Shown: in pieces, positions 5,815 through 61,475 of the stretch
Numbering within the stretch: position 1 is the stretch's first letter
How the letters are laid out: each line of letters begins with the position of its first letter
Assembly: GCA_018303075.1 (NCBI GenBank)
Contig: JAGVYW010000001.1
Coordinates: 7,156 to 71,155 of the forward strand
From: Candidatus Woesearchaeota archaeon
GTDB taxonomy: Archaea > Nanobdellota > Nanobdellia > Woesearchaeales > DSVV01
Length of the DNA stretch: 64,000 nt
Reading direction: 5' to 3'
Translations under genes and position numbers: made by a program
The notes under the pieces: model-generated
What the model saw: the letters and a program-made list of their open reading frames with translations, nothing else
Told to the model about the DNA's origin: nothing
Database searches by the model: none

Positions 5815-5866
5815 CTAAGAAGAATAAATTTATAAACTAATAATTGTTAGATTTAAATAAGGGGTA

Positions 5867-10652: not shown

Positions 10653-11873
10653 CTAGAATTCAAATAATTTCTTTTGTTTTTTTAGATTGTCCAGCAAAAT
10701 GCTCTGCTTTAATTGTAAACTGCAATCATAATTAAATCTCTTTTTGATAAATGCTAATGTATAATTTAACATTGTTTGTTTATCTTCGAATTCAATAGGT
10801 TGTGCTGCTACTGCTTTTCTTGTTGCTTCTCTTACAACCCAAACACCTAATGGGGCAATATATTCGTTTGGGTCAACAAAACGTAAAGTGAGTATGCTTG
10901 CTTGTTTTTTTGTTTGCTGCAACTTTTCAAGAATTGCTAATCTAGCAGCGTAATAGCCACCAACTGTTGAAGATGCATATTCTTTTCTTCCATAATAATC
11001 TTCATAGTCTGTTGCAAATGATGTTTTTTCTGAGATAATTGTTTCAAATAATTCATACTGCCATTCGTTTGGAAAGAATAAGATCAGATAATAATTTCCA
11101 AGATGCCCTCCAAAATATGCTTTGTAGCAATCAAGTTGGTTGTAATCTTTTATTTGTTTGATTAATGTTTTTCCAATTGTATCATCTGTTAAAGTTATTG
11201 ACCATCTTGTCGGCACTAATTTTCTTTGTGTTTTTACTCCGAGATTTCCTGTACTCACAATTTTTGTTAGATAATGCTCATCGAATCCAGCGGTGTAAAG
11301 CTCCTGCAATGCAGCTACTGCTTTTACATCTGTGTCAGAAACAATCTTATCAACTTTTGTTGGAACTTTGATATTTTCTGTAATTTGCGCTTTTCTTAAT
11401 TCAATATTACAGCCATGAGGAGCTTCTTCTCTGTTGAGTGTAAGGCTGAAGTTTGGTTTTTTTGATAAATTTATCTCTATATCCACTGGTTTTTGCGAAA
11501 GAGAAAGCTCTTGTGATAGCTCTAAGAATTTGTTGGTAGATGAATTATTAGACGGATTGTTTATTGATTTGATATTTGCTTTAAACTGTGCATTGACTAA
11601 CTGTGTTCTTAAATCAATTATTTTAGGAATTGAATAATTTTCTCTGCTCCAAAGCAAAGGCTCATCGTTTTGTCTGTATTCCTCTGTATTAAGAATGCCA
11701 ACATTTATGTTAGGATAACCAAATCTTCCAACAAAGATGTTAGGAGATGCTCCAAAGTAATCCTGCTTTGCTTTTTTGTTGAATTCCTCCTGTGATTGCA
11801 GCTTTATCTTCTTTGGATCTAATGCAGGAAAATGCAATGTTCTGCCTTTGTCTTTGATGTATGATATGTCCAT
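10653..11873 (-). CDS. conserved archaeal protein, possibly Nre-family (DNA-repair-associated)
   Basis: The start was chosen at MDISYIKDKG; the upstream ATG of the 489-aa frame would overlap the divergent DHH gene. The Nre assignment rests on recollection of the family (motif PNIFVGRFGYPNINVG) and is tentative. Confidence 0.35.
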   Translation of the reverse strand: MDISYIKDKGRTLHFPALDPKKIKLQSQEEFNKKAKQDYFGASPNIFVGRFGYPNINVGILNTEEYRQNDEPLLWSRENYSIPKIIDLRTQLVNAQFKANIKSINNPSNNSSTNKFLELSQELSLSQKPVDIEINLSKKPNFSLTLNREEAPHGCNIELRKAQITENIKVPTKVDKIVSDTDVKAVAALQELYTAGFDEHYLTKIVSTGNLGVKTQRKLVPTRWSITLTDDTIGKTLIKQIKDYNQLDCYKAYFGGHLGNYYLILFFPNEWQYELFETIISEKTSFATDYEDYYGRKEYASSTVGGYYAARLAILEKLQQTKKQASILTLRFVDPNEYIAPLGVWVVREATRKAVAAQPIEFEDKQTMLNYTLAFIKKRFNYDCSLQLKQSILLDNLKKQKKLFEF

Positions 11874-11970
11874 GAAATAAAGAAAGTTTTTTTGGATTAA
11901 ATAGTTATTGAAAACAGTGGTGTGCCAGAAAACAATTAAACATATAAATGACTCTTTGTTTTTCAGATTC

Positions 11971-14355: not shown

Positions 14356-14821
14356 ATGGCAAAAACTAAGGAAGAAATGTCGCAAGCTGATTTGATTATG
14401 GAATATTATAAGAAACATCCTAAAAGAGAGATACCTCATCCTGAAATTGTTGACTGGGTTGTTGATGAGTTTAAACAAGACGAATTCCACTTGTCTATTG
14501 ACAGGTGGTGGAATTCGTAAGCGTCAAGAACCACCTTAGGTGTTATCGATAAGCATGCCACTGGTTTGAAAAGTATTTAGAGATCCTGACAGAGCAATTA
14601 GAAAATTATCACAAGAAGGACAACTCATCAAAATAAATAAAGGAGTTTACAAATATGACCCTGATTTCGTACATAATAGAGAACTTGAAGATTTTACACC
14701 TGCACAAAAAGAAGAAATTTTTAAGAGGGATAATTACAGATGTGTAATTTGCGGTAGAGGAAAAGCAGTGTTTGTTCTTGATGTATCGCTTCGCTATTTT
14801 GATGGAACGACGAGCCACTAA
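14356..14821 (+). pseudogene. HNH/Zn-ribbon endonuclease-like gene disrupted by a MITE-like insertion (possible degraded restriction partner of the methyltransferase)
   Basis: The 5' part (MAKTKEEMSQADLIMEYYKKHPKREIPHPEIVDWVVDEFK...) terminates inside the repeat. The 3' part runs in a different frame from 14570 to 14821 with no start codon. It encodes a winged-helix-like segment and a C-x2-C motif (RDNYRCVICGRGK). Confidence 0.4.
14475..14590. repeat. MITE-like repeated element, copy B (inside the HNH-like pseudogene)
   Basis: This is the same element as 7336-7467: the 5' ~65 nt are about 95% identical and the 3' terminal motif is shared. Its length is not a multiple of 3, consistent with the frameshift between the gene halves. 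Confidence 0.5.
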
Positions 14822-27078: not shown

Positions 27079-28338
27079 TTACAAATTTTTCTTAAGAAAG
27101 AATAAATATGCTGGTAAGACTGTAATGGTATTGCCTTTCTGTTGTATCTTTTCTTGTTTTGCTTTTGAAACAACAACACCTTCTTTACAATTAAATTGCT
27201 GCATAAAAGCAAGTAATCCATTTATCTCAATCTTCCCATATTTTATTTCAATAGGGATAATTTTCTCTTTTGTAATTATAGCATCAACCTCATTCTTGTA
27301 AGAATCTCTCCAAAAAAATTCTGCTTTGAGTTTATTTATAATTACTGATTCAAATACTTTTGATTTTGAATAGTCATCTTCTCTAAATAAAATATCTCCT
27401 GAAATAATAGTTGGATAATATTTTTTTAACTTTCGCTCTATTTTCCTTCTATTTCTTGAATAATTGTATAACTTTCGTAAAAGAAACGATTCTTCAAGAT
27501 ATGAAAGATACAAAGATAATGTTTGCCGTGCAATATTTAATTCTTTTGCAAGATCATCTAATTGAATTATCTGTCCAGGCTCTTCCATAATTATATTTAC
27601 AAGCGATTGTATAAGAGAAATATCTTTAATTGCAAAAAGAATCGGAATATCACTATAAATTGTTTTTTCAATAATATTTTCTCTAATATATTTTTTAATC
27701 AGCTCTTTATCCTGCAGATCGATTATTTCTGGAAATCCTTGCGTAATAATAAATTGCTGAAATAATTGAGAAAGCTCTTTTTCATACAATTTCTCGTTTT
27801 TTATTTTAATTCCTTTAAATGCTAGATACTCTAAAAATGTTAATGGTTCAATCTTAAACTCAAATATTCTTCCAGCAAGCGACTCTTTTGATTTTCTTCT
27901 GATAAACAATGATTCAGAACCAGAAATAATAATCTTAACGTTTTTAGAGTAATTGTCATAAATCCTCTTAATCTGTTCTTCCCAATTCCTTACTTTTTGT
28001 ATTTCATCAAATAAAAATAGATATTTCCCTTGATTTAACTGTTTATTCATCAGTTGCTCATATTCCTTGATAATCTCTCGTATTTCTTTATCTCTAAATT
28101 CGTCAAACGAAAAATACATGATATTCTCAGGATTTATTCCTTGTTTGATATAATCATCAACTATTTTAAACATTAATGTAGTTTTACCTACTCTTCGTAA
28201 GCCAGTCAAGGAAATAATCTGCTTCTGGGTGATACACTTGTTTATTATTGTATAAATCTCTCTATCTTTATACTCTAATTCTAACTTTTCTTTCCACCAT
28301 TTGTTTGATTCTTGAAGTACATCTTTAATTTGCGGCAT
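27079..28338 (-). CDS. AAA+ ATPase, archaeal AAA_14/DUF4143 family
   Basis: The Walker A site is GLRRVGKTT and Walker B is LFLFDE, with a C-terminal DUF4143-like region. Confidence 0.7.
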   Translation of the reverse strand: MPQIKDVLQESNKWWKEKLELEYKDREIYTIINKCITQKQIISLTGLRRVGKTTLMFKIVDDYIKQGINPENIMYFSFDEFRDKEIREIIKEYEQLMNKQLNQGKYLFLFDEIQKVRNWEEQIKRIYDNYSKNVKIIISGSESLFIRRKSKESLAGRIFEFKIEPLTFLEYLAFKGIKIKNEKLYEKELSQLFQQFIITQGFPEIIDLQDKELIKKYIRENIIEKTIYSDIPILFAIKDISLIQSLVNIIMEEPGQIIQLDDLAKELNIARQTLSLYLSYLEESFLLRKLYNYSRNRRKIERKLKKYYPTIISGDILFREDDYSKSKVFESVIINKLKAEFFWRDSYKNEVDAIITKEKIIPIEIKYGKIEINGLLAFMQQFNCKEGVVVSKAKQEKIQQKGNTITVLPAYLFFLKKNL

Positions 28339-36428: not shown

Positions 36429-38738
36429 ATGCGAGGCTTTGTTGTTTATCCAACATATAGAATCATTGAAAATAAAGCATATGTCTACTTATTTGGAAAA
36501 CTAGAAAACGGAGAAAGTTTTTTGGCAATAAATCTTTTTCAACCTTATTTTTATATAAAAGAATCAGATCAAAAAAAAGCAACAGAGATTCAAAAAACAG
36601 AGAAATTTATAATAGAATCAACTAACTTCTCTAATTTCAAAAAAGAACCTATTATCAGGATAATTATTGATGTTCCAAACCAAGTGCCGCCATTAAGAAA
36701 ATTATTTGAGGATAATAAGATCATTACCTATGAAGCAGATATTCGTTTTGCATATAGATTTATGTTTGACCATGATATAAAAGGGTCATTGACTATAAAA
36801 GGAGAATATAAAAAAGGAAACTTTGTGGATAGGATATACGAAAATCCTGAACTTTCAGCTGCAGATGTCTATGAGGCAGAGCTTAAGGTTGTTTCATTAG
36901 ATATTGAGACTAACAGTAGTGCAACTGAAATCTATTGTATTGCATTATCCACAAATAATCATACTGAAGCATATATTACAAGTGAAAAAGAAGTTGATAA
37001 TAAATATACAAAGATATTCAAGGATGAAAAAGCAATGCTTGAATATTTCAAAGAAAGAATACAAGCACTTGACCCAGATATAATTACAGGTTGGAATGTA
37101 ATAGATTTTGATCTGCACGTTTTAAAAGAAAGAATGAAATACTACAAAATACAATTTGTTATAGGCAGGGCAGATTGGGAATGTAAAATACGAATTGAAT
37201 CTGATTTTATGCGCGAATCTTCTGCAGATATTGCAGGAAGACAAGTTTTAGATGGTATTGCGTTATTAAAAAACAATTTTGTTAAACTCAATGATTACAA
37301 ACTTGATACAGCAAGCCAAGAAATCCTTGGCAAGAAGAAAGCAATAGAATTTATAGATAAAAGAGCAGAGATAGAAGCATTTTATAAAATTGACAAGAAA
37401 ACATTGATTGAATATAATATTATTGATACGAAACTAGTGCTGCAGATACTAGACAAAAAGAACTTGATCAATATCACAATCCAACGCTCAATGCTTACAG
37501 GCATGCAGTTAGAGAGAGTTTCTTCATCAATTGCTTCATTAGATTCATTATATCTAAGGGAAACAAAAAAACGAGAAATTGTATGCCCAACTGCGCATAT
37601 TGATGATTCAACAGAAAGAATTAAAGGAGGTTATGTCAGAGATTCTTCACCAGGAATTTATGATTATGTATTAGTGCTTGATTTCAAGAGTCTATATCCA
37701 AGCATTGTTCGTACATTTAATATTGATCCAATCACATTTGATAAAGATGGAGAAATTGAAACTCCGAATGGAGCAAGATTTAGAAATGAAGTAGCAATTC
37801 TGCCTGAACTAATCCAGCATCTCTGGCAGATGAGAGATGCAGCAAAGAAAAAGAAAGATGATGTTGCAAGTTATGCGATTAAAATTACAATGAATAGTTT
37901 CTTTGGGGTTCTGGCCAACCCTGCATGTAGGTTTTATAGTTTAGATGTAGCAAATGCAATTACATCATCTGGAAGACATATTGTGCAGGAAACAGCTGAA
38001 ATGATTGAAAAAAAAGGTTTTCCAGTAATATATGGCGATACTGATTCAACTTTTGTTTTATCAGGAAAAAAGAATGAAAAAGAAACAGAACTTCTTGGCG
38101 AACAGCTGCAGAAAGAGATAAATCATTACTATACACAGCTTGTTAAAGAAAAATATAATAGAACATCTTATTTAGAGCTTGAATTTGATAAAGTATACAA
38201 AAAGTTCATCCTGCCAAAGATTAGAGGCCAGGAAACAGGAGCAAAAAAAAGATATGCTGGATTATTGGTAGAAGATGGAAAGGAAGAAGTTGATATTGTA
38301 GGTCTAGAATTTGTTAGGCGAGACTGGACAGAACTTGCAAAAGTATTCCAGATGGAGCTGCTTAACAGAATATTTAACAATAAAGAAGTGCAGGAATATA
38401 TCAAACAATTTACAAAAGAGGTATTAGCTGGGCAGCATGATGATTTATTAGTATACCGAAAAGCAATCAGAAAAGAAGTTGCTGAGTATACTAAAACAAC
38501 TCCACCTCATGTAAAAGCAGCAAGATTGCTTGGGGATGATTTAGATTCAAATATTATAGAATATGTAATCACAATTGAAGGTCCTGAACCAATACAGAAA
38601 AAACGCCATAAGATAGATTATCAGCATTATATTGACAAGCAGATGAAACCAATTGCAGATTCTATACTCTGTTTCTTTAAAACGTCATTTGATGAATTGA
38701 CAGCGTCAAAGAAGCAGAAAACGCTGTTTAATTATTAG
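36429..38738 (+). CDS. polB: family B DNA polymerase
   Basis: The exonuclease motif LDIETN, the polymerase motif B KITMNSFFG, and motif C YGDTDS are all present in a 769-aa protein. Confidence 0.85.
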   Translation: MRGFVVYPTYRIIENKAYVYLFGKLENGESFLAINLFQPYFYIKESDQKKATEIQKTEKFIIESTNFSNFKKEPIIRIIIDVPNQVPPLRKLFEDNKIITYEADIRFAYRFMFDHDIKGSLTIKGEYKKGNFVDRIYENPELSAADVYEAELKVVSLDIETNSSATEIYCIALSTNNHTEAYITSEKEVDNKYTKIFKDEKAMLEYFKERIQALDPDIITGWNVIDFDLHVLKERMKYYKIQFVIGRADWECKIRIESDFMRESSADIAGRQVLDGIALLKNNFVKLNDYKLDTASQEILGKKKAIEFIDKRAEIEAFYKIDKKTLIEYNIIDTKLVLQILDKKNLINITIQRSMLTGMQLERVSSSIASLDSLYLRETKKREIVCPTAHIDDSTERIKGGYVRDSSPGIYDYVLVLDFKSLYPSIVRTFNIDPITFDKDGEIETPNGARFRNEVAILPELIQHLWQMRDAAKKKKDDVASYAIKITMNSFFGVLANPACRFYSLDVANAITSSGRHIVQETAEMIEKKGFPVIYGDTDSTFVLSGKKNEKETELLGEQLQKEINHYYTQLVKEKYNRTSYLELEFDKVYKKFILPKIRGQETGAKKRYAGLLVEDGKEEVDIVGLEFVRRDWTELAKVFQMELLNRIFNNKEVQEYIKQFTKEVLAGQHDDLLVYRKAIRKEVAEYTKTTPPHVKAARLLGDDLDSNIIEYVITIEGPEPIQKKRHKIDYQHYIDKQMKPIADSILCFFKTSFDELTASKKQKTLFNY

Positions 38739-38762
38739 TATTTGCTTGTTCACTTTGTTCAC
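38736..38762. repeat. 26-nt repeat TAGTATTTGCTTGTTCACTT[T/C]GTTCA (copy 1; second copy at 47466-47492)
   Basis: This is a near-identical 26-mer containing tandem TGTTCAC half-sites. It lies between the convergent polB and alaS 3' ends. Confidence 0.5.
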
Positions 38763-38765
38763 AAT

Positions 38766-41300
38766 TCAAATATTAGTAATATCACAAAGATCAAATAATT
38801 CTCTCTTAAATCGTTCAATTGTTTTCGCTGCATGTTCTGGTTGAGTTCTTAGAATAGAGCACGTTTTTGCAATTACATCACCCACATATTCTTCAGTTGA
38901 AGTAAGTTTTGTCATACTATATTCTATTTTCTCTCCTTTTTCATCCATCTTTTTTGCTTTTTTCCATTTATCAAATAATTCCTGCGTTCTTGCTGGAATT
39001 TGCTGCACTTCACATTGCAAGAGTTTTGCTATAACATCTGCAGCTTTACTCTCGTCACTTTCTTCTTGAACTGCAGCATTTCCTGCTGTAAATGTTATTC
39101 GCACAATTCCATCCTGTATCTTTGCAGTTTTGATTATCTTAATCTTATCAACTTCTTGAGTATTGTCCAGATGTGTTCCACCGCAGCATTCAACATCTGT
39201 ATTAATAATATTCACAATTCTCAGTTCTTTTCCAGGCACAACTCCTCCTTGATAAATATTCAAACCAAACAATTTTTCAGCTTCATCACGAGGATAGAAT
39301 TTTTTAACTATTGGAATCCTTGCTTCAATTATCCTATTTGCTTCTTGCTCTATCTTTCTAACCTCATCTTCAGTAAGGTTTGAAAAATGGGTTATATCAA
39401 TATGTGCTTTTTCCAATGTTTTCTTTGCTCCAGCTTGATTGATATGGTTTCCTAAGATAGTTCGTGCAGCTGCATTTGTGATATGCGTAGCTGTATGATG
39501 TTGAGCAAGCTGCATTCTTCTCTTAAAATCAATTTTGCATTCAACAGCTTCTCCTTCTGGAATTTTATGTTCAGCAGTTAATTCATGAACAATAACATGT
39601 TTGTACTTAAACACATTAACTACTGGTTCATTTTGAATAGTTCCGCAGTCATGCAGCTGTCCGCCTGACGTAGGATAGAAATAAGTCTGATCAAGAATTA
39701 TATATCTGCCAATTATCTTTAAAACATGCGCTTTGAACTCTATTTTCTTCCAATCATTAAAATATAATATATTTGTTGCAGGAACATCAGCAATATCAAG
39801 TACTATGTCTACTTTTGTTTCATGTTCCTGCTTTTCTTTGTCATGCTGGCTGGCGACAAGTGCATAAAAATTATCAGGAACTCGAACATTTTTTCCAAGT
39901 TTTTTTGCTTCTTCTGCAATAAGTTCAGGAGCTATTCCATTGCTGTCATATAGTTTAACAAGAACAGCAGGAGTTACCTCTTCTTTAACAATTCTTTGCG
40001 CTATAGCTTTTGATTTATCAACAGTTTGTATATATTTATGTCTTTCAACATCTAATATTTTTTGTACATTTGCAATATTTTCTTTTAATTCTGGAAACAA
40101 TGGCTTCAAATAATCTGCATGCTCCTCTGCAATATCCCTAAGATCAAGATTCCAATTATATTTATCATTGAAGTACAATGCTCTTCTTAAAATTACTCTT
40201 AAATTATATCCTCCACCTACATTGCTTGGCAGTCCACCATCTGCTAATGCAAAAAGCAGAGAACGTGTATGCTCAGCAATTGAAAAAAGAGCTGATAAAG
40301 GAATAACATTTGATTTCAAGAAAGAAACATCAACTTTTAATTGATCTGCAATCTTTTGCCACATCTTCTGAAGATCATCGACTTCATCTGTATTTAGATA
40401 AGAACTAAAAGGTAAGAATTGCTGCATTAAATGCTTGTCGACTTTTATGCCTGTTTGATGAAACAGTTTTTTGCATACTGCAGGGAATGTTGTTTCATAG
40501 CTAGTTGCAGCTGCCTGAGTAAACCAAGCATTTCTCTCATGTCCCATACCCATGTCTAACACATTTAGATTTAATTCTTTTTTTATTCCCTGTTGTGTTA
40601 CTTCATATAACATATAAACTTGATTGCCTAGTTCAAGTCCTCGAGAAAAGAATTCCATACATGGTCCAAAGTTTCCTCCTCCTGTCCATGCATCTTCATG
40701 AAATGTAATCTCTTCATTTGGAAGACCTAAACCTTTGCTCAACCAAGAATGTATATCTGCAAAATATTTTTTCTGATTGAATTCTTTTGGAGGAGTAAAA
40801 GCATGCTGTCCTATCATTACAAAACCAGTATAATGTGCTCCAGTAATCCCAACATTATCAATATCATTAAATCTTAAGCAGAACTGCGGTACAACTAACG
40901 GATTTGCAGGAGGCTTTACTTCTCCTGAAACAACATAAGGCTGAAAATCATAGATGCTTGCTTGTACAAACTCAGTATCTTCTCTCCAACGTGCTATTAC
41001 TGGATAACGTTTTATTGGTGTATAACCCAATTTCTGGAAATGTTTAGCAAATTCCTGCCATACTTCAATGTAATCTAATTTTTTCTTTGCAGGAGGATTT
41101 TCAAAAAATCTGAATCCTCCTGAGCAGCTTGGATCTCCACAATTATGCTGGTCATTGTTAACTGTCCAAAAGAATGTTCCGCATGTTTTACATTGCTTTC
41201 TCAAAAAACCTTGCTCTTGCAATACAGAAATAGCATAATATTTCTCTGGATTCTTGCTTGCGATTGTTTTAAACTCTCTTTTGATTTGTTTAATATCCAT
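38766..41300 (-). CDS. alaS: alanyl-tRNA synthetase (archaeal type)
   Basis: The 844-aa protein has a class II core, an editing domain, and a C-terminal DHHA1-like domain, with an archaeal-type N-terminus. Confidence 0.9.
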   Translation of the reverse strand: MDIKQIKREFKTIASKNPEKYYAISVLQEQGFLRKQCKTCGTFFWTVNNDQHNCGDPSCSGGFRFFENPPAKKKLDYIEVWQEFAKHFQKLGYTPIKRYPVIARWREDTEFVQASIYDFQPYVVSGEVKPPANPLVVPQFCLRFNDIDNVGITGAHYTGFVMIGQHAFTPPKEFNQKKYFADIHSWLSKGLGLPNEEITFHEDAWTGGGNFGPCMEFFSRGLELGNQVYMLYEVTQQGIKKELNLNVLDMGMGHERNAWFTQAAATSYETTFPAVCKKLFHQTGIKVDKHLMQQFLPFSSYLNTDEVDDLQKMWQKIADQLKVDVSFLKSNVIPLSALFSIAEHTRSLLFALADGGLPSNVGGGYNLRVILRRALYFNDKYNWNLDLRDIAEEHADYLKPLFPELKENIANVQKILDVERHKYIQTVDKSKAIAQRIVKEEVTPAVLVKLYDSNGIAPELIAEEAKKLGKNVRVPDNFYALVASQHDKEKQEHETKVDIVLDIADVPATNILYFNDWKKIEFKAHVLKIIGRYIILDQTYFYPTSGGQLHDCGTIQNEPVVNVFKYKHVIVHELTAEHKIPEGEAVECKIDFKRRMQLAQHHTATHITNAAARTILGNHINQAGAKKTLEKAHIDITHFSNLTEDEVRKIEQEANRIIEARIPIVKKFYPRDEAEKLFGLNIYQGGVVPGKELRIVNIINTDVECCGGTHLDNTQEVDKIKIIKTAKIQDGIVRITFTAGNAAVQEESDESKAADVIAKLLQCEVQQIPARTQELFDKWKKAKKMDEKGEKIEYSMTKLTSTEEYVGDVIAKTCSILRTQPEHAAKTIERFKRELFDLCDITNI

Positions 41301-41666
41301 ATAACAAAAGTAAGTTAAGTTTAGGTATATAAAAGTATCTCTGAAGAATTGTTACTGTACAATTTCATAATTAGTACAGAGAACTTTGCAAAATTCTTTG
41401 CAAAGTTCTTCGTAAACATTCTCAATTATACCTGTATCCTGCATAGTAATATAAGGTATATTACATCCAATTTATTAACGTTGATTCTGACTGTGTAATA
41501 TACTGTATAATACGGTGTTTATTAGTTATATACTGTAAGATACATGTAATGACAGACTCGAGAAAAGAAATCATAAAAACAGACAACACTACCTCGCTGT
41601 GATTACTAAACCGAAACCTTTAAAGACTGCCTCAGTTTTACCTATTAAAAGTTATACATTTTACAA

Positions 41667-42527
41667 TTGAGGTCGCTTAAAATGTCACAAATTGTGCAAA
41701 TAAAATCCCTTGTACTCGCAGCAGTTACAGATAAGATTGGCTATGTAAAGGCTCGAAAAGAGGCCGATAAATTAGCTTCAGAACATGGCTTGAGAGTAGC
41801 TGATACGCCGATGGCAATACAAGCTATGGCTAATCATCCTGAAGTTCGTGAAGCAATAAGGCCAGGATGGATAGACACAATCACTGGCGAATATCATGGC
41901 CAACGAGATGGCGATAGTTCTTATGAAACATGGCATTCCGTAGGTTCTTTGGCAACTGCAAAAGGATTGGAAAAAGTATTTTCCAAAGTTGGAGAATATG
42001 CATTTATGCAGATTGCTGATGACGAATGGATTGCTGTCGGAAAAGGCAATTACAACGGTCAGGATGTTGCAAGAATCCATCTTGATGATGTTAAGAAAGG
42101 CAGTGTGCCTGCAGCAGGAACTCCTTATACTGTTTTTATACGATTGGGCAAGGACAAAGCCAACATCAATGACAGAGGTCAATTAACGTATGATACTTTC
42201 ATGAGTGATGACAGAGTGCTTATGATTGCAGGTTCTCCTGATAACAGGGAAGCACTGGCTAAAATGCTCTTTGGCAGAAAAGAATATGGCGGAGAAGGCT
42301 GGAGCAATATTGGAAGCTATCATAGAATAAATGAAGTTGGCTTTGACGCTCAAGCTAAGGGGCGCCTGGTGTACCTCAACAACAATAGTGTTGGCCTCGT
42401 TGGCGACGGCAACATCAACAACCTTTATGGGCGTTTCGTCGTGGTAGGCGCAGTTGCGCGCGAAAAATCAGCTCCTCTGAGCATCGTGCAGCCAACTCTC
42501 GAGCAGACACTGGCAGTTATCAAATAA
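41667..42527 (+). CDS. hypothetical protein encoded by a GC-rich, compositionally atypical ORF (probably foreign)
   Basis: GC content is visibly higher than in the flanks (for example ggcgcctggtgtacctcaac...gtggtaggcgcagttgcgcgcg). No recognisable family was found. The likely start is MSQIVQ at 41682. Confidence 0.4.
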   Translation: MRSLKMSQIVQIKSLVLAAVTDKIGYVKARKEADKLASEHGLRVADTPMAIQAMANHPEVREAIRPGWIDTITGEYHGQRDGDSSYETWHSVGSLATAKGLEKVFSKVGEYAFMQIADDEWIAVGKGNYNGQDVARIHLDDVKKGSVPAAGTPYTVFIRLGKDKANINDRGQLTYDTFMSDDRVLMIAGSPDNREALAKMLFGRKEYGGEGWSNIGSYHRINEVGFDAQAKGRLVYLNNNSVGLVGDGNINNLYGRFVVVGAVAREKSAPLSIVQPTLEQTLAVIK

Positions 42528-43405
42528 TCCAGACCTGAACAAAGAAGGCATGTTAAAAGCCGTATCTCAGCTGTATAAACATTAAATTACCGATATTTTT
42601 TTATATTCTTCTTGTTATTTCTATTTTTGTCCCAGTTGCTTCGTCAACTTTGATGAAGTTATGAAGTAGCTTGGAACTACACGCCATTTCACTATGGCAA
42701 CATCGCTGTTATAAAATACAACCACGACAGCTAACGTCTGAAGTGGTGGTGGCTTTCAGGAAAGTGAAATGGCTACTATAGTGGCGCCTGGTGTACCTCA
42801 ACAACAATAATAATGGCCTCGTGTCATCTTTAAGTTGCTTTGCTCCTTTTCGAGCCATGATTCCGTTACGTATGGAAATCTTGGTTGCTGCAAGAAGGTC
42901 CTCGCTCACAGTATTGGTCAATTGTGATGCTCTCAAATCAAGTGCCCTGATGGCTTGCTCATTGATTGTACTCTTGACTTTGATTCCTGCAACCTGAGGA
43001 TAATTCTTTTTGATGAAGTTCTCTCCAAGCTTTATTCCTTGCTTGAATTTCTTTTTTGAATCGAGAAAGATTGCTGCAAGAAAGAGGTTCTTTGGATGAA
43101 AATAGTCATAGACTCTAATATTATATTCTTTGCTTTAATAACAGATTCTGTAAAAAGAAGATTAATCCTACAATATAAAGGGAAATTTTTATTTCCATCA
43201 TATGAAATAGACAAACATAAGCAATTATTGTGTCTTTATTGCATGTGCTTTAGCATTTCAAGAAAGCGTAATTTGGTCAGATGATAAAAAATTAAAAGAA
43301 CAGCAGAAAATAACTATTCTCAACACAGAAGAGATTATGGATATTATTTTCTAATTCTTTTTTTTAAACAAAAACTTTATATAACACCTCAGCATATATT
43401 TTATC

Positions 43406-46229: not shown

Positions 46230-47429
46230 TTATTCTTTTAGGCTTTGCTCTTTTAATATTGTATCCTCTTTCTTAAGCTTATACTGTTGATACCATGTAT
46301 AGCAATCATGATCGTACATTTTTTCATACCACTTGCATTGCAGAGCAATACATTGATGATTCTCAAGCTTTTCATCCTCTTTACAAATAATCTTTTCGCA
46401 TTGATGGTTCTTAACAATCTCATCAAATTCACATTCAAGTTTCTGACAGCTATGGTTGATTGTAATCTCATCATCCATACAATTCAGACTTTCGCAGGAA
46501 TGATCTTTTATGATCTCATTATCTAAACATTCAAATTTCTGGCAGCTATTATTGTTGCAGATCTCATCATTGCCACATTCATCATCCCCGCAGCATTGAT
46601 ATTTCTTACATTGATGGGATTCAAGAGGATCAATATATTCGCATGTATTGCAATCTAATTTTTGGCAGATGCTGTTTTCACAGATCTCATCAGCCATGCA
46701 TTCATTGTTTTTTTCGCACAATGGAAGTTCACTGCATTCTTTAGCAATTGAAAATCCTGATTTTTCACATTGGTAGTAGACCATAAATTCCTTGATCTTT
46801 TTGTCAGTATCCCATTTTAATGTAAATCTATTGCCATCATTCTTTCGTTTCATTGTGATTGTGAAATTTTCAAATCCTTCGCTTGTAACAACAGGAGTGT
46901 GCCGTATCACTCTATTTGTATCTAGCTTTGCATTGTAATTCAGCGAATAAGGATTAGCAAAACGGAACTCTTTATTTTTGCTGATCGAAAGGTCATTGAT
47001 AAGAAATTTGCCTACAAATGTGTCATTTCTCATATAACAGGATTCAACAAATGATTGATTCAGCATTCTGCAGCTAAAACTAAATATTGGGCATTTGGCA
47101 GTATACCTTTTCTTTCCAATCTTGATGTAATATGAGGTTGGTTCACCTGCAACAAAGATGCCATCTTGTGATTCATATGTATAATAGGTTACTTTTTTCT
47201 TACCTTCTGTTTTCTCTCTGCTACTCCATGCTCCTTTGACAGGAAAATAATTATCTTCTGCTTTAACTAGCCTAGCTGTAACATCATTTCGTATCAATGA
47301 ATCATCAATCTTCAGCGAGCCATCGTCCTTGCATTCGATTTTTGTTGCTGAAACAAATGAGAGGGAAAGAAGGCTGCAAAAGACTAACACCAAAATGATT
47401 CTATTAGAACGTCTGTTCAATGATGCCAT
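46230..47429 (-). CDS. secreted protein with C-terminal Cys-rich repeats (C.x.EI...H.C..L.C modules)
   Basis: A signal peptide is followed by a beta-rich domain and then about seven short Cys repeats (CQKLDC, CQKFEC, CESLNC, CQKLEC...). Confidence 0.55.
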   Translation of the reverse strand: MASLNRRSNRIILVLVFCSLLSLSFVSATKIECKDDGSLKIDDSLIRNDVTARLVKAEDNYFPVKGAWSSREKTEGKKKVTYYTYESQDGIFVAGEPTSYYIKIGKKRYTAKCPIFSFSCRMLNQSFVESCYMRNDTFVGKFLINDLSISKNKEFRFANPYSLNYNAKLDTNRVIRHTPVVTSEGFENFTITMKRKNDGNRFTLKWDTDKKIKEFMVYYQCEKSGFSIAKECSELPLCEKNNECMADEICENSICQKLDCNTCEYIDPLESHQCKKYQCCGDDECGNDEICNNNSCQKFECLDNEIIKDHSCESLNCMDDEITINHSCQKLECEFDEIVKNHQCEKIICKEDEKLENHQCIALQCKWYEKMYDHDCYTWYQQYKLKKEDTILKEQSLKE

Positions 47430-47465
47430 TTTCTTGTTTTTATGTGGTTAAGGAATATAAATGTT

Positions 47466-47492
47466 TAGTATTTGCTTGTTCACTTCGTTCAT
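47466..47492. repeat. 26-nt repeat, copy 2 (just upstream of the TATA-like box of the minus-strand gene that starts at 47429)
   Basis: One mismatch relative to 38736-38762. On the minus strand it reads TGAACgaagTGAACaagcaaatacta, directly upstream of aaacatttatatt (BRE/TATA-like), about 30 nt before the ATG. Confidence 0.5.
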
Positions 47493-47694
47493 ACATGATA
47501 AAGATATTGATTATATTATGAATTCTCTGCAATTGAAAGTAAAAGCAAGATTAGAAAAGAGAATTATAGATGGTTATAAAGGAATCAATCTAAGCCTTGT
47601 AGAACCATTTGTAGTTGATGCCTTAAAAGAACTAAAAGTGATTTAGTTTCTAGTAATCAAAAATCATATAAACACAAACAATTCTAAATATGGA

Positions 47695-48219
47695 ATGCCA
47701 ACAAAAAAAGCATCTATCCATATCATTCTTACAGGTGGAACAATTGATTCGTATTGGAATGGCACCATTGATACTGCTACGCCATTAAAAGAATCTTCTA
47801 TTCCTCTATTTATCTAATCGTTAAAACTCTATGATAAGGTAATGTTCACAACTATTTGTATGAAAGACAGTAGACAATTAGTACAATCTGACAGAAAAAA
47901 GATTTTGATTGCAACTGAACAAAGTCCATGCAAAAAGATAATTATTACGCATGGAACATATACAATACCCGATACAGCTAAGTTTCTGCAGACTAATTTA
48001 CAGCGAAAAGACCAAACAATTATCTTGACAGGTTCAATGATTCCATTAACTGGATTTTCTCCATCAGATGCTCCTTTTAATTTAGGTTTTTCATTTGCAA
48101 AACTGCCAGAATTATCTGCTGGAGTTTACATCTGCATGAACGGAAGAATCTTCACAGCAGATGAAACTATTAAGCTCTTATTTGAAGGAAGGTTTGCGTC
48201 TGTGTTTGGGGAAAAGTGA
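47695..48219 (+). pseudogene. L-asparaginase N-terminal-domain gene carrying an in-frame TAA stop (codon 41)
   Basis: Asparaginase motifs occur in order and with correct spacing: ILTGGTIDS, IIITHGTYT (the HGTDT equivalent), and ILTGSMIPLTGFSPSDAPFNLGFSFA. A single TAA at 47815-47817 interrupts an otherwise continuous frame. No C-terminal asparaginase domain is present. Confidence 0.5.
48127..48219 (+). repeat. ~90-bp direct repeat, left copy (3' end of the asparaginase-like gene)
   Basis: About 90% identical to 48933-49025. The two copies flank the MNT-HEPN cassette. Confidence 0.7.
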
Positions 48220-48260
48220 TCTTAATAACATTTATATATCTGCAATGCATATTATATTTT

Positions 48261-48554
48261 ATGGTGCGAGACAGACTGCAAATACTAAAACTAAAAAAGA
48301 AGATTCTTCCAGTCTTAAGAAAATATCATATTAAAAGAGCGGGTATTTTTGGAAGCTATGCACGTGGAGAACAAAAGAAAAAGAGCGATGTAGATATCCT
48401 AATACTGCCTCCACATGGGCTTGGTCTTGGTTTTATAAGAATTGAATCTGAATTAGAAAAAGTTTTAGATACAAAAGTTGACTTACTTTCATATAATGGG
48501 ATTAATCCTCGCCTAAAAAATAAAATTTTAAAAGATGAGGTCAGAATACTTTGA
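48261..48554 (+). CDS. minimal nucleotidyltransferase (MntA-like antitoxin)
   Basis: The nucleotidyltransferase motif is GIFGSYARGEQKKKSDVDIL, in a protein of about 100 aa. Confidence 0.75.
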   Translation: MVRDRLQILKLKKKILPVLRKYHIKRAGIFGSYARGEQKKKSDVDILILPPHGLGLGFIRIESELEKVLDTKVDLLSYNGINPRLKNKILKDEVRIL

Positions 48555-48898
48555 ATAGAGACTCAATTATCTTCTTAGAGCATATGCTTGATGCAATTAA
48601 TAATATTGACAAGTTTATGTTAACTGTTACTAAACAAGAATTCTTTACTAATGTTGAGAAACATAGCGCAGTAGTTCGCCAACTTGAGATTCTCGGTGAA
48701 GCTGCTAAGAACCTAAAACATTCTTTTATATCGAAATATCAATCTATTCCTTGGAAAGAAATAATCGGTTTGAGAGATAAAGTTATACATCATTATTTTG
48801 GACTTGATATGGAGATAATATTTGATATCGTAAACAAAGAATTACCTCCTTTGAAAAAAAATCTTCAAAAGATAATCAAAATAGAGAATGAGAAATAA
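48551..48898 (+). CDS. HEPN-domain protein (HepT-like toxin, DUF86)
   Basis: The R-x4-HxY HEPN motif is RDKVIHHY. The start overlaps the MNT stop (ATGA), which is the typical MNT-HEPN pair organisation. Confidence 0.75.
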   Translation: MNRDSIIFLEHMLDAINNIDKFMLTVTKQEFFTNVEKHSAVVRQLEILGEAAKNLKHSFISKYQSIPWKEIIGLRDKVIHHYFGLDMEIIFDIVNKELPPLKKNLQKIIKIENEK

Positions 48899-48932
48899 TA
48901 TGCACTCATGTTTGACACTTCTTAATCAACCA

Positions 48933-49025
48933 TACATCTGCATGAACGGAAGAATCTTCACAGCAGATGAAACTATCAAGATCCTATCAGAAGGAAGGTT
49001 TGCGTCTGTGTTTGGAGAGAGATAA
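48933..49025 (+). repeat. ~90-bp direct repeat, right copy: an orphan duplicate of the asparaginase-like gene's 3' end
   Basis: It encodes YICMNGRIFTADETIKILSEGRFASVFGER*, compared with ...YICMNGRIFTADETIKLLFEGRFASVFGEK* in the left copy. Confidence 0.7.
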
Positions 49026-49183
49026 GTATTAAACAATATATTTTTTTAAAATTATGTATTCCATACATGCTATCCAACTGGTTCTTTATTTCATCCTATA
49101 TTACAAAAACATAACATAAAATCCATTAAATATGTAAAATAAGATAAAATATATAAACTCTGCCTCCATGTATTAAATAATCC

Positions 49184-49324
49184 ATGAAGAAACCAATATC
49201 TGCAACCATTGATGAAACTCTGATAAAATGGATAGATAAAAAGCTCAAAGATTCTACAGCATATCGCAATAAATCACATTTGATAGAAATAGCACTGCAA
49301 AATATGAAGAAAGATGAGAAATAA
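49184..49324 (+). CDS. ribbon-helix-helix (CopG-family) small protein
   Basis: The 46-aa protein MKKPISATIDETLIKWIDKKLKDSTAYRNKSHLIEIALQNMKKDEK has beta-alpha-alpha RHH topology. It lies immediately upstream of the secretion ATPase and is not in the supplied ORF track because it is under 60 aa. Confidence 0.5.
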   Translation: MKKPISATIDETLIKWIDKKLKDSTAYRNKSHLIEIALQNMKKDEK

Positions 49325-49391
49325 CGTTAGTTGGTAGCAATTAGTTTGTAGTTATCAACTAATAAAAAATCGAACGGAGTGAAGATTTTTT

Positions 49392-52300
49392 ATGCAACAA
49401 AAAAAAGACTGGGATTTTGAAGTGATTAAAGAAGGAGAAGAAAATATATTGTACATATATTGTGAAGGGGTAAGCATATCGCCTTTAGTTGAAGATTCAA
49501 GTATTGTGATGATTAGAACAATCGATATTCTTTCTCAAGTATCCGGTATAAGCAAGATAATATTCAATCAAAAAAGAGATTATGAGTATGATTTCAAACA
49601 AACACAGATTCTTGCAGAGATTGCAGAACTTTATAAAAAACTAATAAAAGAAAAGAATTATTTCAATTATCCTACTGCTGGTAATTACGATAATAGGATT
49701 ATCAATCAGAAATATAATGAATTGCGAGAAATTATATTTAAACATATGAAAGGAGATCCTATTGGCGCATATATTGAATTAACAAGAATAATGCGAAGAG
49801 AAAAGATTGATCTTGAAAAAGTAGTTGAACAGATACAACAGGATATTACAAAAAGGTATATAGCAATAATAAGCTACGTTACAAGCCTTCTTGAAAAGAC
49901 AAGAATGCTAATACTTGCAAAACCATACATTGCTGGCTATAAAATTGGAGATAGAAGCGTTTACAAATACATTTTCACTCCGTCAATAAAGCCAGATTTT
50001 ATGTTTACAAAATTAATGGCTAATTTTCCAAGCAATGCTGAAGAGATTGATTCATACATAATTGGCGACGATACAGATGTTACTATCTTTCGTCTGCCTG
50101 ATTCAACAATAATACTCTATCATATTGTACCGCCTGAATTCAAGCTTCCTGAAGAAAAATATGAATTATTAGATATGGCAAGAAAAATTCTTGCAGAACA
50201 CAAGCCAAAACAAGAAGAGTTTACAGATCCAGAAAGGATGCGCGAGGTATTTTCTAATATTGGCAAGGACTTGCTTGAAGAGATTGCAACATCGAAGAAT
50301 ATTATGTTGAGAGAGAAAGAGCTGCAAAAATTAACGCAAATCTTAGTGCGATACACTATTGGTTTTGGGTTGATTGAAGTGTTATTGCAGGATGATGATA
50401 TGCAAGATATCTCAATCAACAGTCCATTGGGAAAGATACCTATATTCATTGTGCATGGAAAATATGGCGATTGCACAACAAATATTATCCCGACAAAATC
50501 AGAATCTGAAAGCTGGGCGTCAAAATTGAGATTAATCTCTGCCCGTCCATTAGACGAAGCAAATCCAATATTAGATACAGAATTAGAACTGCCTGGTGCA
50601 TCTACAAGAGTTTCTGTAATTACACGGCCATTAAATCCAACAGGACTAGCATTTTCTTTTAGAAAACATAGAGATAAACCCTGGACGTTACCATTGTTCA
50701 TTAAATTCAAAATGTTGAATCCTATTGCAGCTGGTTTAATCAGTTTCCTTGTTGATGGAACGCGGACAATTTTAATTGCAGGAACAAGAAGTGCAGGAAA
50801 ATCATCTTTTTTGACAGGGGTGCTTGTTGAGATTATGAGAAAGTATAGGATAATAACAGTAGAAGACAGCGTTGCAGGTGATTCTGAGATATTAATCAGA
50901 AATAATAATAAATGGCAAAGAACAACAATAGGGAATCTTATTGATAAACAGCTAGAGAAACAAGTTTCATTACAGACATTTTCTGGACATGAGGTTGCAG
51001 AAAATACTGAAGATATTGAAATTTTTGCAATGAACAAAAAAGGAAAGATCGTAGTCACAAAACCTTCTGTATTTATTCGACATAAAGTAACAAAACCAAT
51101 CTATGAGATAAAAACAAGAACAGGAAAGATATTGAAAGTAACAGGAGATCATTCTCTATTTGCAATTGGAGAAAACGCAGAGATTTCAGAGGCAAAAGTG
51201 AATAATCTAAACATCGGAAACAAAATAGCTGTAGCAAGAAAACTACCGTTAATCAATCAAGAAAAAGAATTTATGAACATATTATACGATGTAATTGAAA
51301 GAACAGATTCATTTATTACAGGTTTAACAACAAACTATTGCTTAGAACATCATTTTAATGATATATTATCATTTGGTTCAGCAAGAAATGTTAGCTCTGC
51401 AACAATAAAAAGTTGGAGAAGAAACAAAGTTCTTCCTGGATATATTGCTAAAGATCTTATGACACTCCATCAAACACTTGACTTTTCAACAGATAAATTC
51501 AGAATCAATAATTCACAGAAATTGATATCATTAAAGATACAATTGAATGAAGATTTTATGACATTTATTGGATTATGGATTGCAGATGGGTGTTATGATA
51601 AAAAATCAATTATCATATCCTGCAATGATCCAGAAGACAGAGCAGTTGTAGAAAAAGTTGGAAAAAGCTTTGGAATACAATACAAGATGCATAGTGATGG
51701 CATTTCATATATGCTCAATTCCAAAACATTGAAAGTGGTATTGCAGGATATTCTTTCATGCACTGGGGATTCATACACTAAAAGAGTTCCTGGATGGATA
51801 TACACACTCTCCCCGCAGCAAATTGCTGCATTTTTACGAGGAGTATTTACTGGCGATGGCTGCGCTACAGACAAAGAAATAGTAATCAATCTTTGTAGCA
51901 GGCATCTTCTCTCTGATATGCAAACATTACTCTTGATTTTCAATATTAGTCTGAGAATAGGGAATTTTATTCCAAGAGATAAAACAATACGAGCTGCTAT
52001 CTCTGGAAACGAATATCTAACAAGTTTTGCAAAATATATTGGATTTCTACAACCATATAAAAACAATGTTCTTTCAAGACTTTGTGAGAAAAAGATAACT
52101 CATGATACAACAGATACATTTGATTTAAGAATAAATACAAAAATAGAACTTGCTAACTTATTTGGCAAGAGATTCAATAAAAATGATTACATAAACAGAA
52201 ATAACAGCATAGGAAGAAGAAAACTTACATCATTATTGCAAGTACAATCGCAAACACAGATGCTAGAGTTACAGCATCAAATACTAGAAAACTTAAAGCA

Positions 52301-53234
52301 ATTGCTTGAATCAGATATATATTGGGATGAGATAATTGAGATAGAAAAAATGGAGAATTTTGAAGGATATGTCTATGACCTTTCTGTACCTGATTATGAA
52401 AGCTTTATCTGTAGAAATATTATAGCACACAATACGTTAGAGTTGCCTAACAAAGCTTTTCGTGATCTTGGATTTAACATACAATCAATGAAAGTTGCAA
52501 GCGCATTGGCCCATGATTCAACAGAAGTTTCTGCTGAAATTGGAATCAGAACAACACTTCGTCTAGGAGATTCAGCATTGATTGTAGGAGAAGTTAGAAG
52601 TAAAGAAGCAGTTGCATTGTACGAAGCAATGCGTGTTGGCGCTGCTGCAAATGTTGTTGCAGGAACAATTCACGGCGATTCTCCTTATGGGGTATATGAC
52701 AGAGTTGTAAATGATATTGGCATTCCCAAGACATCATTCAAAGCAACAGACATCATCATTGTTACAAATCCAATAAAATCAGCAGATGGTATGCATAAAT
52801 ACAAGAGAGTTACACAGATAACAGAAGTGCGAAAGCGCTGGGAAAATGATCCAATGGAGGAAAAAGCATTTGTTGATCTGATGAAATATGAGCCAAAAAC
52901 AGATGAATTATTGATCACTCCTGACCTAAAAAATGGCGATTCAGAAATTCTCAAAGCAATTGCAGGAAATGTCAAGGAATTTGCTGGCAGCTGGGATGCA
53001 GTATGGGATAATATCCTTTTACGTGGAACAATTAAAGAGAATATAGTGAAGATGGCAGAACAAACAAAAAATGACGAATTATTGGAGGCTCCATTTGTGA
53101 CAAAAGCTAATGACATGTTCCACATAATATCTGAAAAAGTAAAAGAAGAAGTTGGTTTTTTAGACAGTAAAAAGATACTCTTTCAATGGAATGATTGGTT
53201 GAGTAGAGAAGTAAGAAAGACGCAGAAAAGTTGA
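49392..53234 (+). CDS. type II/IV secretion-family ATPase (FlaI/GspE/VirB11-like) containing a large intein
   Basis: The Walker A site is AGTRSAGKSS. The Asp box RIITVED|TLEL is split by the intein. Downstream motifs are LIVGEVRSKEA and TIHGDSP (the His box). The extein is about 758 aa with a long N-terminal domain. Confidence 0.85.
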   Translation: MQQKKDWDFEVIKEGEENILYIYCEGVSISPLVEDSSIVMIRTIDILSQVSGISKIIFNQKRDYEYDFKQTQILAEIAELYKKLIKEKNYFNYPTAGNYDNRIINQKYNELREIIFKHMKGDPIGAYIELTRIMRREKIDLEKVVEQIQQDITKRYIAIISYVTSLLEKTRMLILAKPYIAGYKIGDRSVYKYIFTPSIKPDFMFTKLMANFPSNAEEIDSYIIGDDTDVTIFRLPDSTIILYHIVPPEFKLPEEKYELLDMARKILAEHKPKQEEFTDPERMREVFSNIGKDLLEEIATSKNIMLREKELQKLTQILVRYTIGFGLIEVLLQDDDMQDISINSPLGKIPIFIVHGKYGDCTTNIIPTKSESESWASKLRLISARPLDEANPILDTELELPGASTRVSVITRPLNPTGLAFSFRKHRDKPWTLPLFIKFKMLNPIAAGLISFLVDGTRTILIAGTRSAGKSSFLTGVLVEIMRKYRIITVEDSVAGDSEILIRNNNKWQRTTIGNLIDKQLEKQVSLQTFSGHEVAENTEDIEIFAMNKKGKIVVTKPSVFIRHKVTKPIYEIKTRTGKILKVTGDHSLFAIGENAEISEAKVNNLNIGNKIAVARKLPLINQEKEFMNILYDVIERTDSFITGLTTNYCLEHHFNDILSFGSARNVSSATIKSWRRNKVLPGYIAKDLMTLHQTLDFSTDKFRINNSQKLISLKIQLNEDFMTFIGLWIADGCYDKKSIIISCNDPEDRAVVEKVGKSFGIQYKMHSDGISYMLNSKTLKVVLQDILSCTGDSYTKRVPGWIYTLSPQQIAAFLRGVFTGDGCATDKEIVINLCSRHLLSDMQTLLLIFNISLRIGNFIPRDKTIRAAISGNEYLTSFAKYIGFLQPYKNNVLSRLCEKKITHDTTDTFDLRINTKIELANLFGKRFNKNDYINRNNSIGRRKLTSLLQVQSQTQMLELQHQILENLKQLLESDIYWDEIIEIEKMENFEGYVYDLSVPDYESFICRNIIAHNTLELPNKAFRDLGFNIQSMKVASALAHDSTEVSAEIGIRTTLRLGDSALIVGEVRSKEAVALYEAMRVGAAANVVAGTIHGDSPYGVYDRVVNDIGIPKTSFKATDIIIVTNPIKSADGMHKYKRVTQITEVRKRWENDPMEEKAFVDLMKYEPKTDELLITPDLKNGDSEILKAIAGNVKEFAGSWDAVWDNILLRGTIKENIVKMAEQTKNDELLEAPFVTKANDMFHIISEKVKEEVGFLDSKKILFQWNDWLSREVRKTQKS
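50868..52433 (+). mobile_element. intein (522 aa) with a LAGLIDADG homing-endonuclease domain, inserted in the Asp box of the secretion ATPase
   Basis: Block A begins with Ser: SVAGDSEILI. The LAGLIDADG motifs are FIGLWIADG and FLRGVFTGDG. The C-terminal block is VYDLSVPDYESFICRNIIAHN followed by the +1 Thr. Removing the intein restores RIITVEDTLELP. Confidence 0.8.
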
Positions 53235-61276: not shown

Positions 61277-61395
61277 AATTGTTATACAGAATTATTACTA
61301 TAATAATTTATTGATTTGCTGATTCTTTTCACAGTTACATCCTGTCCTAGTTAATCTCTGTCGTAGTTAACATCTGTCCGGATTACAGAGCTTTA

Positions 61396-61432
61396 GTATT
61401 TTCTGAATGAGCGAAGCGAATTCAGAAAATAC
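61396..61432 (+). repeat. Hairpin with conserved loop GAGCGAAGCGA (copy 3)
   Basis: The sequence is GTATTTTCTGAAT-GAGCGAAGCGA-ATTCAGAAAATAC, with a perfect 13-bp stem. The loop is identical to the copy at 5779-5814, and the 5' stem is related to it (GTATTTNCTGA). Confidence 0.6.
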
Positions 61433-61475
61433 TATTAGCATAAACAATATAAACTAAAACTAATTTAAATAGTTT

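Follow-up and report, generated by a model that had tools for sequence, protein, structure and literature searches.

How does a toxin-antitoxin gene pair come to stand between two copies of the end of another gene, and what has become of that gene? The question is raised by a locus in a 64-kb stretch of archaeal DNA, referred to here as the window (the whole stretch that was analyzed), which is an AT-rich chromosomal segment with 32% guanine plus cytosine (GC). Exact protein matches are named Candidatus Woesearchaeota archaeon at NCBI and come from a 115-kb contig of a metagenome-assembled genome (MAG). The matching contigs derive from groundwater metagenomes (PRJNA268031; 'ANAN16' scaffolds) and represent the Rifle population. 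At the locus, a gene for an asparaginase N-terminal domain (positions 47695-48219, forward strand; 174 codons; PF00710, E = 5.5e-21), which is best read as a pseudogene now, is followed on the same strand by genes for the minimal nucleotidyltransferase (MNT) antitoxin MntA and the HEPN RNase toxin HepT, and then by a second copy of the end of the asparaginase-like gene. We consider it probable that an 806-bp piece integrated here by a single, Campbell-type crossover in the gene end.

A repeat search matched positions 48127-48212 with 48933-49018 (86 nt, 93% identity, spacing 806). Continued through both stop codons, the repeat comprised 93 nt with 10 differences (89% identity). Copy A (48127-48219, forward strand; attL-like) now forms the 3' end of the gene, with TGA as its stop (terminal codons ...LLFEGRFASVFGEK). 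Copy B (48933-49025, forward strand; attR-like) ends in TAA (...ILSEGRFASVFGER), is now an orphan, and appears in public records as a 45-codon reading frame. Apart from intragenic tandem repeats, no comparable repeat was found elsewhere in the 64-kb window. The first-pass annotation of this DNA had claimed that the last ~30 codons of the gene recur downstream of the toxin-antitoxin pair at ~90% nucleotide identity, and the alignment of 48127-48219 with 48933-49025 bore this out. Two short repeats were observed as well. Within the first 44 nt of copy A lies a 7-nt inverted repeat, CATCTGC...GCAGATG (48129-48135 and 48157-48163), which is missing from the closest orthologue of the gene (locus L001). 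A 7-nt direct repeat, TCTTAAT (48220-48226 and 48920-48926), brackets the cassette and most of the filler behind it. By a rough estimate, each of these short repeats would arise by chance at roughly 5-10% (~0.09 for TCTTAAT).

The sequence between the 93-nt repeats is 713 nt long (48220-48932), in agreement with the ~715-bp cassette of one MNT and one HEPN gene proposed earlier, and both domains were matched by Pfam. It opens with the left junction (TCTTAAT) and the upstream region of the cassette (48220-48260, forward strand), and the module including this upstream region begins 7 bases past the TGA of the asparaginase-like gene. The TATA-like TTTATATA at 48231-48238, ~25 nt before the mntA ATG, is a putative promoter. 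The mntA gene (48261-48554, forward strand; 97 aa) comes first, with matches to PF18765 (E = 1.2e-15) and PF01909 (E = 6.1e-14) above the Pfam cut-offs, and the co-oriented hepT gene (48551-48898, forward strand; 115 aa; PF01934, E = 1.9e-25) follows with a TTG start that overlaps the mntA stop (4-nt overlap). The translations contain the motifs GSYARGE and DVDILI (GS...DxD) in MntA and RDKVIH (Rx4H) in HepT. Between the hepT stop and copy B lies a 34-nt filler (48899-48932, forward strand), which matched nothing else in the window and none of the fetched loci, except that its last 15 nt are identical in contig L108 from a diverged strain. The filler was also considered as diverged asparaginase coding sequence, and this was rejected: its in-frame translation failed to align to the family consensus.

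Among archaeal toxin-antitoxin systems, MNT/HEPN pairs are the class with the highest abundance and mobility (PMC7641770, PMC2701414), and MntA neutralizes HepT by (poly)adenylylation (PMC7641770). The pair described here shares with the known systems a minimal nucleotidyltransferase gene upstream of, and overlapping, a HEPN (DUF86) RNase gene, together with the GSx(n)DxD and Rx4H motifs. It differs in its NCBIfam scores, which were under the cut-off of 60 for both MntA (NF047752, 53.9 bits) and HepT (NF047751, 42.4 bits). These results suggest that the cassette is an intact MntA/HepT (type VII) pair of diverged members, assigned at the domain and architecture level and not at the equivalog level. 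The pair would presumably be active as a toxin-antitoxin system, and AMPylation-based neutralization would apply to it only by analogy.

Related cassettes were found in other contexts. At loci L010/L011, a cassette with 82% nucleotide identity lies in unrelated surroundings, and the similarity extends only from ~48227 (AACATTTATATAT) to the hepT stop; these limits suggest that the cassette is a self-contained unit. A more distant relative (L093-L100; 56% amino acid identity) lies downstream of an AI-2E transporter gene. No flanking duplications were found around either of them, so the same pair in a setting like that of the window did not turn up. One further member of the HepT cluster (P0167) is the same protein with its TTG start translated differently. 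No compositional anomaly was detected in the cassette (GC 0.30 versus 0.32 for the window), and composition is therefore silent on the donor.

Could the duplication, or the in-frame TAA of the asparaginase-like gene described below, be an artefact of assembly or sequencing? Assemblers can be misled by repeats, and several short contigs end in or near this one. Against this stands the recovery of the same sequence from MEGAHIT k141, MEGAHIT k127, IDBA-style scaffolds, Logan k31, and the NCBI MAG, in more than 10 samples. Five contigs, assembled separately from different samples, match window positions 47400-49400 at 100% identity (one of the five, L007, covers the window only from 47462), and the shorter MEGAHIT k127, IDBA-style, and Logan contigs agreed with the structure. 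Moreover, the end of Logan contig L113 lies exactly 30 nt inside the repeat, as expected of a k = 31 graph at a genuine 44-nt exact repeat. Assembly error is excluded for the duplication structure, and an artefact behind either feature is exceedingly improbable.

The differences between the two copies were not spread evenly. All 10 lay within the last 49 nt, and the first 44 nt (48127-48170, forward strand, in copy A) were identical (P = 0.0016 under uniform spread). This 44-nt tract differs from the L001 orthologue at 8 of its 44 positions, so its identity between A and B is not due to constraint. The clustering thus places a boundary at ~48170/48976 between a shared segment and two diverged segments, and this boundary reads as the signature of a crossover or conversion tract, not of a drifting target-site duplication. 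The short insert between direct repeats, and the presence of TCTTAAT on both sides of the cassette (chance ~0.09, a rough estimate), might recall a long target-site duplication left by a transposase-like staggered cut. Such a duplication would begin identical, however, and here the 10 differences are concentrated in one half. The short identical duplication, terminal inverted repeats, and transposase of a transposon or insertion sequence are all absent, the related cassettes lack duplications, and 93 nt is far above known lengths. Judged by the mosaic divergence, a target-site duplication is effectively refuted, in line with the earlier view that the repeats are too long for one.

Gene order in the closest relative, GCA_016219865.1 (L001), bears on which copy is native. 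It has the same order as the window: AlaRS, S30AE-like, DUF5667, a 394-aa gene, the asparaginase-like gene, a 46-aa gene, and an intein-bearing T2SSE ATPase. Starting ~24 nt past the copy B stop, the window sequence can be aligned with the DNA that precedes the 46-aa gene in L001. This gene (49184-49324, forward strand) is the native downstream neighbour, at the same position in both genomes and ahead of the intein-containing T2SSE-type ATPase gene. In addition, contig L105 (ERZ27254836, 1,974 nt) equals window 48069-48126 joined to 48933-50848 with 0 mismatches. In L105 the gene runs directly into a B-type end and native downstream DNA, with no cassette. The hypothetical B-type C-terminal product, used as a protein query for more empty-site contigs, gave no 100% match. 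Together with the pattern of A/B changes described next, these results identify copy B as the displaced native gene end, and the uninterrupted allele is apparently still present in the population. With B native, 806 bp are left for the insert, made up of the 3' half of copy A, the junction of 7 nt, the cassette with its filler, and a single copy of the 44-nt tract, and the last 49 nt of the present asparaginase-like gene are insert-derived.

When L001 was used as the outgroup, copy A had 7 specific changes and copy B had 3. The A-specific changes comprised 4 synonymous changes, 1 stop-to-stop change, and one two-base Ser-to-Phe change, and copy A looks like a coding sequence shaped by selection during divergence in a different lineage. 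The earlier proposal that the insertion brings a replacement 3' end and displaces the original is supported by the native context of copy B, by the cassette-free L105, and by the A-specificity of 7 of the 10 differences.

Contig L108, from a second strain in another sample, is ~94% identical to the window. It begins with the last 15 nt of the filler and runs on through the repeat, whose first 44 nt contain 1 difference, to a 3' half that is A-like (ATT AAA CTC TTA TTT ... GAG AAG TAG) and a markedly diverged native downstream region; the A-like half sits at the strain's own chromosomal end. In L108, too, near-identity gives way to strain-specific sequence at about offset 44. The filler-repeat junction thus exists in a diverged strain, and A-like alleles serve as chromosomal gene ends. 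This pattern would fit a spread of the unit between strains via the 44-nt tract and would also be compatible with gene conversion.

Gene conversion is central to a different history, in which the gene end was duplicated locally, either before the cassette was captured or in the course of its capture, through break repair or template switching. The copies would then have diverged, conversion would have made the first 44 nt identical, and no foreign end would have been imported. Gene conversion can act on direct repeats that lie 806 bp apart, and a mosaic would result; the A-like orphan in L108 could itself be a conversion tract. Yet copy A, which was under selection until recently, has more changes than the unconstrained copy B (7 versus 3), and these are mostly synonymous. 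The population is also clonal (100% identity over 2 kb), and still the 3' halves are 20% apart, a state that is hard to reach by drift in situ. We regard local duplication as a rather improbable origin.

In Campbell 'pop-in/pop-out' recombination, as employed in archaeal and bacterial genetics, a circle with one homologous segment integrates by one crossover, which duplicates the segment as direct repeats, and recombination between the repeats removes the insert. A single crossover with a circular molecule predicts chimeric A and B direct repeats and an empty allele with a B-type end, as found here, and it is the simplest route to the observed structure. The donor would have been a circular DNA carrying a diverged version of the gene's terminal ~93 nt, MntA/HepT with the upstream region, and the 34-nt filler. 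One reciprocal crossover would have taken place within the last 93 bp of the asparaginase-like gene, at the 44-nt tract identical in both copies (0 differences), which is the putative crossover region. The gene would thereby have received the imported 3' half (copy A, TGA), and the native 3' half (copy B, TAA) would have been orphaned beside native DNA. No recombinase was found in the insert or among 28 open reading frames (ORFs) scanned between 27 and 64 kb of the window. Because the insert has no recombinase, the crossover would have been made by the host homologous recombination machinery or by an integrase supplied in trans. The empty allele would represent either the pre-insertion state or a 'pop-out' by recombination between the repeats. 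Laboratory designs of the Campbell type use hundreds of base pairs of homology, whereas the event here would be a natural one with 93 nt (44 nt perfect).

That homology is short for homologous recombination, and several other points weigh against the Campbell-type crossover. None of the fetched contigs contained a circular or attP-type junction, and no donor genome was found with the cassette directly downstream of an A-type gene end. Gene conversion between the copies could also yield the 44-nt identity, and the 7:3 split of A- and B-specific changes is not statistically significant alone. The empty allele is known from the single 1,974-nt contig L105, and it is possible that in this low-coverage sample the assembly crossed over at the 44-nt exact repeat and produced a chimera. 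When JGI metagenome contigs were scanned with a degenerate DNA pattern for the conserved 26-mer of the gene end, only a chance match in an ion-channel gene (L012) came back.

Integrating elements that supply a substitute gene end are known from bacteria. At icd of Escherichia coli, e14 and phage 21 bring their own slightly diverged target 3' end, which completes the frame, and leave the native end as the icdC pseudogene fragment; recombination between the icd copies restores a chimeric or intact gene (PMC13626634). The locus studied here resembles e14 in its direct repeats of a gene 3' end, its upstream copy that completes the frame, its downstream copy that is the native end, and an apparent uninterrupted allele (the single contig L105). 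By contrast, e14 is ~15 kb long with its own integrase and excisionase, and the present insert is 806 bp long, carries a toxin-antitoxin pair only, has no recombinase, and lies in a DPANN archaeon. Streptococcal cis-mobilizable elements (CIMEs) are att-flanked inserts at the 3' ends of protein genes that have lost recombination and transfer genes and kept cargo, with sizes from 13 kb down to 1.2 kb and 'microCIMEs' of 130-220 bp (PMC7563491). The present insert is CIME-like in form only, with att-like flanks and no recombination or transfer genes. CIMEs descend from an identifiable integrative and conjugative element (ICE) or integrative and mobilizable element (IME) and are mobilized by accretion, whereas here no parent or partner was found in a limited sampling, and the host is an archaeon.

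These parallels frame the main rival to the Campbell-type crossover, namely that the insert is the integrase-less remnant of a larger site-specific integrative element, a provirus or plasmid that targeted the gene 3' end with a substitute end, in which an internal deletion left the toxin-antitoxin pair and 34 nt beside attR. It would be an archaeal counterpart of a bacterial CIME. Such elements are recognized by their att-like architecture and substitute gene end, as in e14 at icd/icdC (PMC13626634) and in ICEs, IMEs, and CIMEs at gene 3' ends (PMC7563491). The sharp switch from identity to ~20% divergence at offset 44 in two strains (window copy B and L108) fits a fixed crossover site, and the 44-nt core has a 7-nt inverted repeat inside it. 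Toxin-antitoxin pairs are also genes expected to outlast the decay of an element, and only one internal deletion is needed. On the other hand, there is no integrase fragment or other element gene, with only 7 nt and 34 nt unaccounted for, and no intact related element was found. Viral-contig scans with the gene-end DNA pattern and with HepT were empty. Among the Pfam families matched by at least 2 of 139 downstream ORFs, a set that holds no single-ORF families, there was no integrase. No orphan C-terminal fragment was found by tblastn and self-blastn at the asparaginase-like gene in any of 80 GTDB genomes. We consider a decayed larger element unlikely, though it deserves weight.

The lack of repeats at the related cassettes and of orphan ends at the 80 family loci indicates that the duplication is a one-off of the window lineage. 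As judged from these comparisons, it does not appear to accompany the cassette or the target gene in general. The first-pass annotation had entertained a novel compact cassette-type mobile unit; no evidence was obtained for this, and the two related cassettes have no flanking duplications. More specifically, the 806-bp unit might be an active recombinase-free mini-element that cycles between integrated and excised states in Rifle Woesearchaeota via the 44-nt core, by a trans integrase or RadA, and so spreads the toxin-antitoxin pair between strains. We hold this to be doubtful. If true, toxin-antitoxin modules of DPANN archaea would have a natural vehicle of the 'pop-in/pop-out' kind.

The movement of the abundant MNT/HEPN pairs between archaeal genomes is poorly documented, and the locus provides a clean base-resolved example: a single natural population has alleles with the insert and, apparently, alleles without it, the crossover tract is confined to 44 nt, and the insert brought a gene end with it. 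On the Campbell-type reading, it would illustrate that recombination via a carried gene-end copy can bring in a toxin-antitoxin pair although the insert encodes no integrase, and can do so with the reading frame left untruncated. The locus adds to a known pattern a small archaeal case that lacks an integrase and is apparently still polymorphic, and it leaves the current understanding of integrative elements and toxin-antitoxin systems unchanged. It also carries a warning for annotation: the 45-codon orphan and a 125-aa 'asparaginase' in public records are by-products of the insertion and of a nonsense mutation.

That mutation is the second event at the locus. The 174-codon asparaginase-like frame contains only one in-frame stop, a TAA at codon 41 (47815-47817, forward strand) between the TGGT and HGT motifs, at the position given in the first-pass annotation. 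The TAA was present in every contig covering 47815-47817 (L003-L007, L113-L116, and L119; n = 10, from several assemblers). The cassette-free contig L105 starts downstream of the TAA. The closest orthologue, P0001 in L001, is an uninterrupted gene of 174 aa that is 82% identical and has CAA (Gln) at this position; other family members have Lys, Gln, or Glu. The TAA is therefore explained by one base change from CAA or AAA. No in-frame stop was found in 80 family loci from 80 representative GTDB genomes. As had been noted, the remaining motifs stay in register: TGGTIDS and THGTYT (TGGTI / HGTDT-like) are conserved, and the near-invariant family residues are all kept. With a ratio of nonsynonymous to synonymous substitution rates (dN/dS) of 0.156 against L001, the retention of these residues indicates that the gene was under purifying selection for nearly all its history. 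Since the TAA allele is in every sampled contig, the best reading is that a recent nonsense mutation, separate from the insertion and fixed across the sampled contigs, has made the gene a young pseudogene. This is the first of three explanations that had been offered earlier.

The other two, a sequencing error and programmed readthrough, did not hold up equally well. Sequencing error is ruled out by the recurrence of the TAA in at least 10 contigs from several assemblers. Readthrough or recoding is unlikely, as TAA serves as the ordinary stop of hepT and of the orphan nearby, and the codon here stands in a TAA-T context; TAA recoding is not known in archaea. A functional split gene was also considered and is unlikely, because a 40-aa N-terminal piece would hold the catalytic TGGT motif apart from the rest. 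A further alteration was observed in scaffold L115 (SAMN03202999) at 1470-1510, corresponding to about window 47684-47730, where the first ~45 nt of the gene, start codon included, are swapped for unrelated sequence, with a run of N beyond the replaced gene start. This is either further pseudogene decay in a strain variant or a scaffolding artefact.

The family to which this gene belongs has more than 1,500 matches, mostly of 170-180 aa, in candidate phyla radiation (CPR) bacteria and DPANN archaea. The protein scored below the NCBIfam cut-offs for asparaginase/GatD subfamilies (best 43 bits versus 314). L-asparaginases (type I/II) and GatD are two-domain proteins of ~330 aa, whereas this family has the N-domain only. 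These comparisons point to a distinct single-domain family of CPR bacteria and DPANN archaea.

The surroundings of the asparaginase-like gene were also variable. Just upstream lies a 61-aa ORF (47461-47646, forward strand), the C-terminal remnant of a 119-aa gene, in which 49 aa are 86% identical to L001 9618-9974. The intact gene in L001 (region 8828-9977) follows and overlaps a 267-aa gene with an NTP_transf_2 domain, and comparison with the remnant indicates that ~1 kb was deleted in the window lineage at this point. The 267-aa and 119-aa genes may be another nucleotidyltransferase-type two-gene module. On the other side, L001 has its own, different insertion at nearly the position of the cassette, an AAA_14/ATPase_2/DUF234 ATPase gene on the opposite strand (10541-11923), in the short spacer that separates the asparaginase stop from the conserved palindromic motif ATTATGTATTSCATACATRCTAT. 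No flanking duplication was found at this insertion, and a similar AAA_14/DUF4143 ATPase gene lies at window 27079-28338. The asparaginase-like gene thus sits in a small variable spot that gathers selfish or defence-type genes and is unstable on both sides, and the gene itself is decaying in the window lineage.

Downstream of copy B, a palindrome-containing motif (ATGTAT-TCC-ATACAT) was observed at 49047-49071, in front of the 46-aa gene, which is itself followed by the ATPase operon. L001 and L108 keep the motif while the surrounding intergenic DNA has diverged, and it may be an operator or promoter element. The T2SSE/FlaI-type ATPase gene (49392-53234) contains an intein with a LAGLIDADG homing-endonuclease domain (PF14890, PF14528), and the intein is conserved in L001.

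Three other observations were made in the 64-kb window. Signs of a diversity-generating retroelement were seen at 41300-43400 around the ORF at 41667-42527. The 3' end of this ORF recurs as a 43-nt copy, and an RT-16 RNA (RF03019, 84 bits; 42630-42781) immediately precedes that copy. The two 43-nt copies (42358-42400 and 42780-42822) differ at 4 positions, three of which have A in the downstream, template-like copy (AATAATAATGG versus AATAGTGTTGG), and the fourth is T versus G. No reverse-transcriptase ORF was found near 41300-43400, and the whole 2-kb segment is missing between AlaRS and the S30AE-like gene in L001.

An intergenic element of ~67 nt occurs in two copies (7336-7402 and 14470-14535) that are 97-100% identical and 7.1 kb apart. 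Each copy has a strong predicted hairpin (ACGAATTCCAC...GTGGAATTCGT; -19.6 kcal/mol, z = -2.3) and is followed after ~30 nt by a second short conserved block, CATGCCACTGGT. The element had no Rfam match, and the two copies may mark the att-like termini of a 7-kb island or may each be a gene for a small RNA. Finally, a recurrent intergenic motif starting with TAGTATTTGCT was found just past gene ends at 5777-5840, 61394-61457, 38730-38761, and 47460-47491. Two of these copies have a palindromic extension (GTATTTGC...GCAAATAC), and the motif may be a lineage-specific terminator or regulatory motif.

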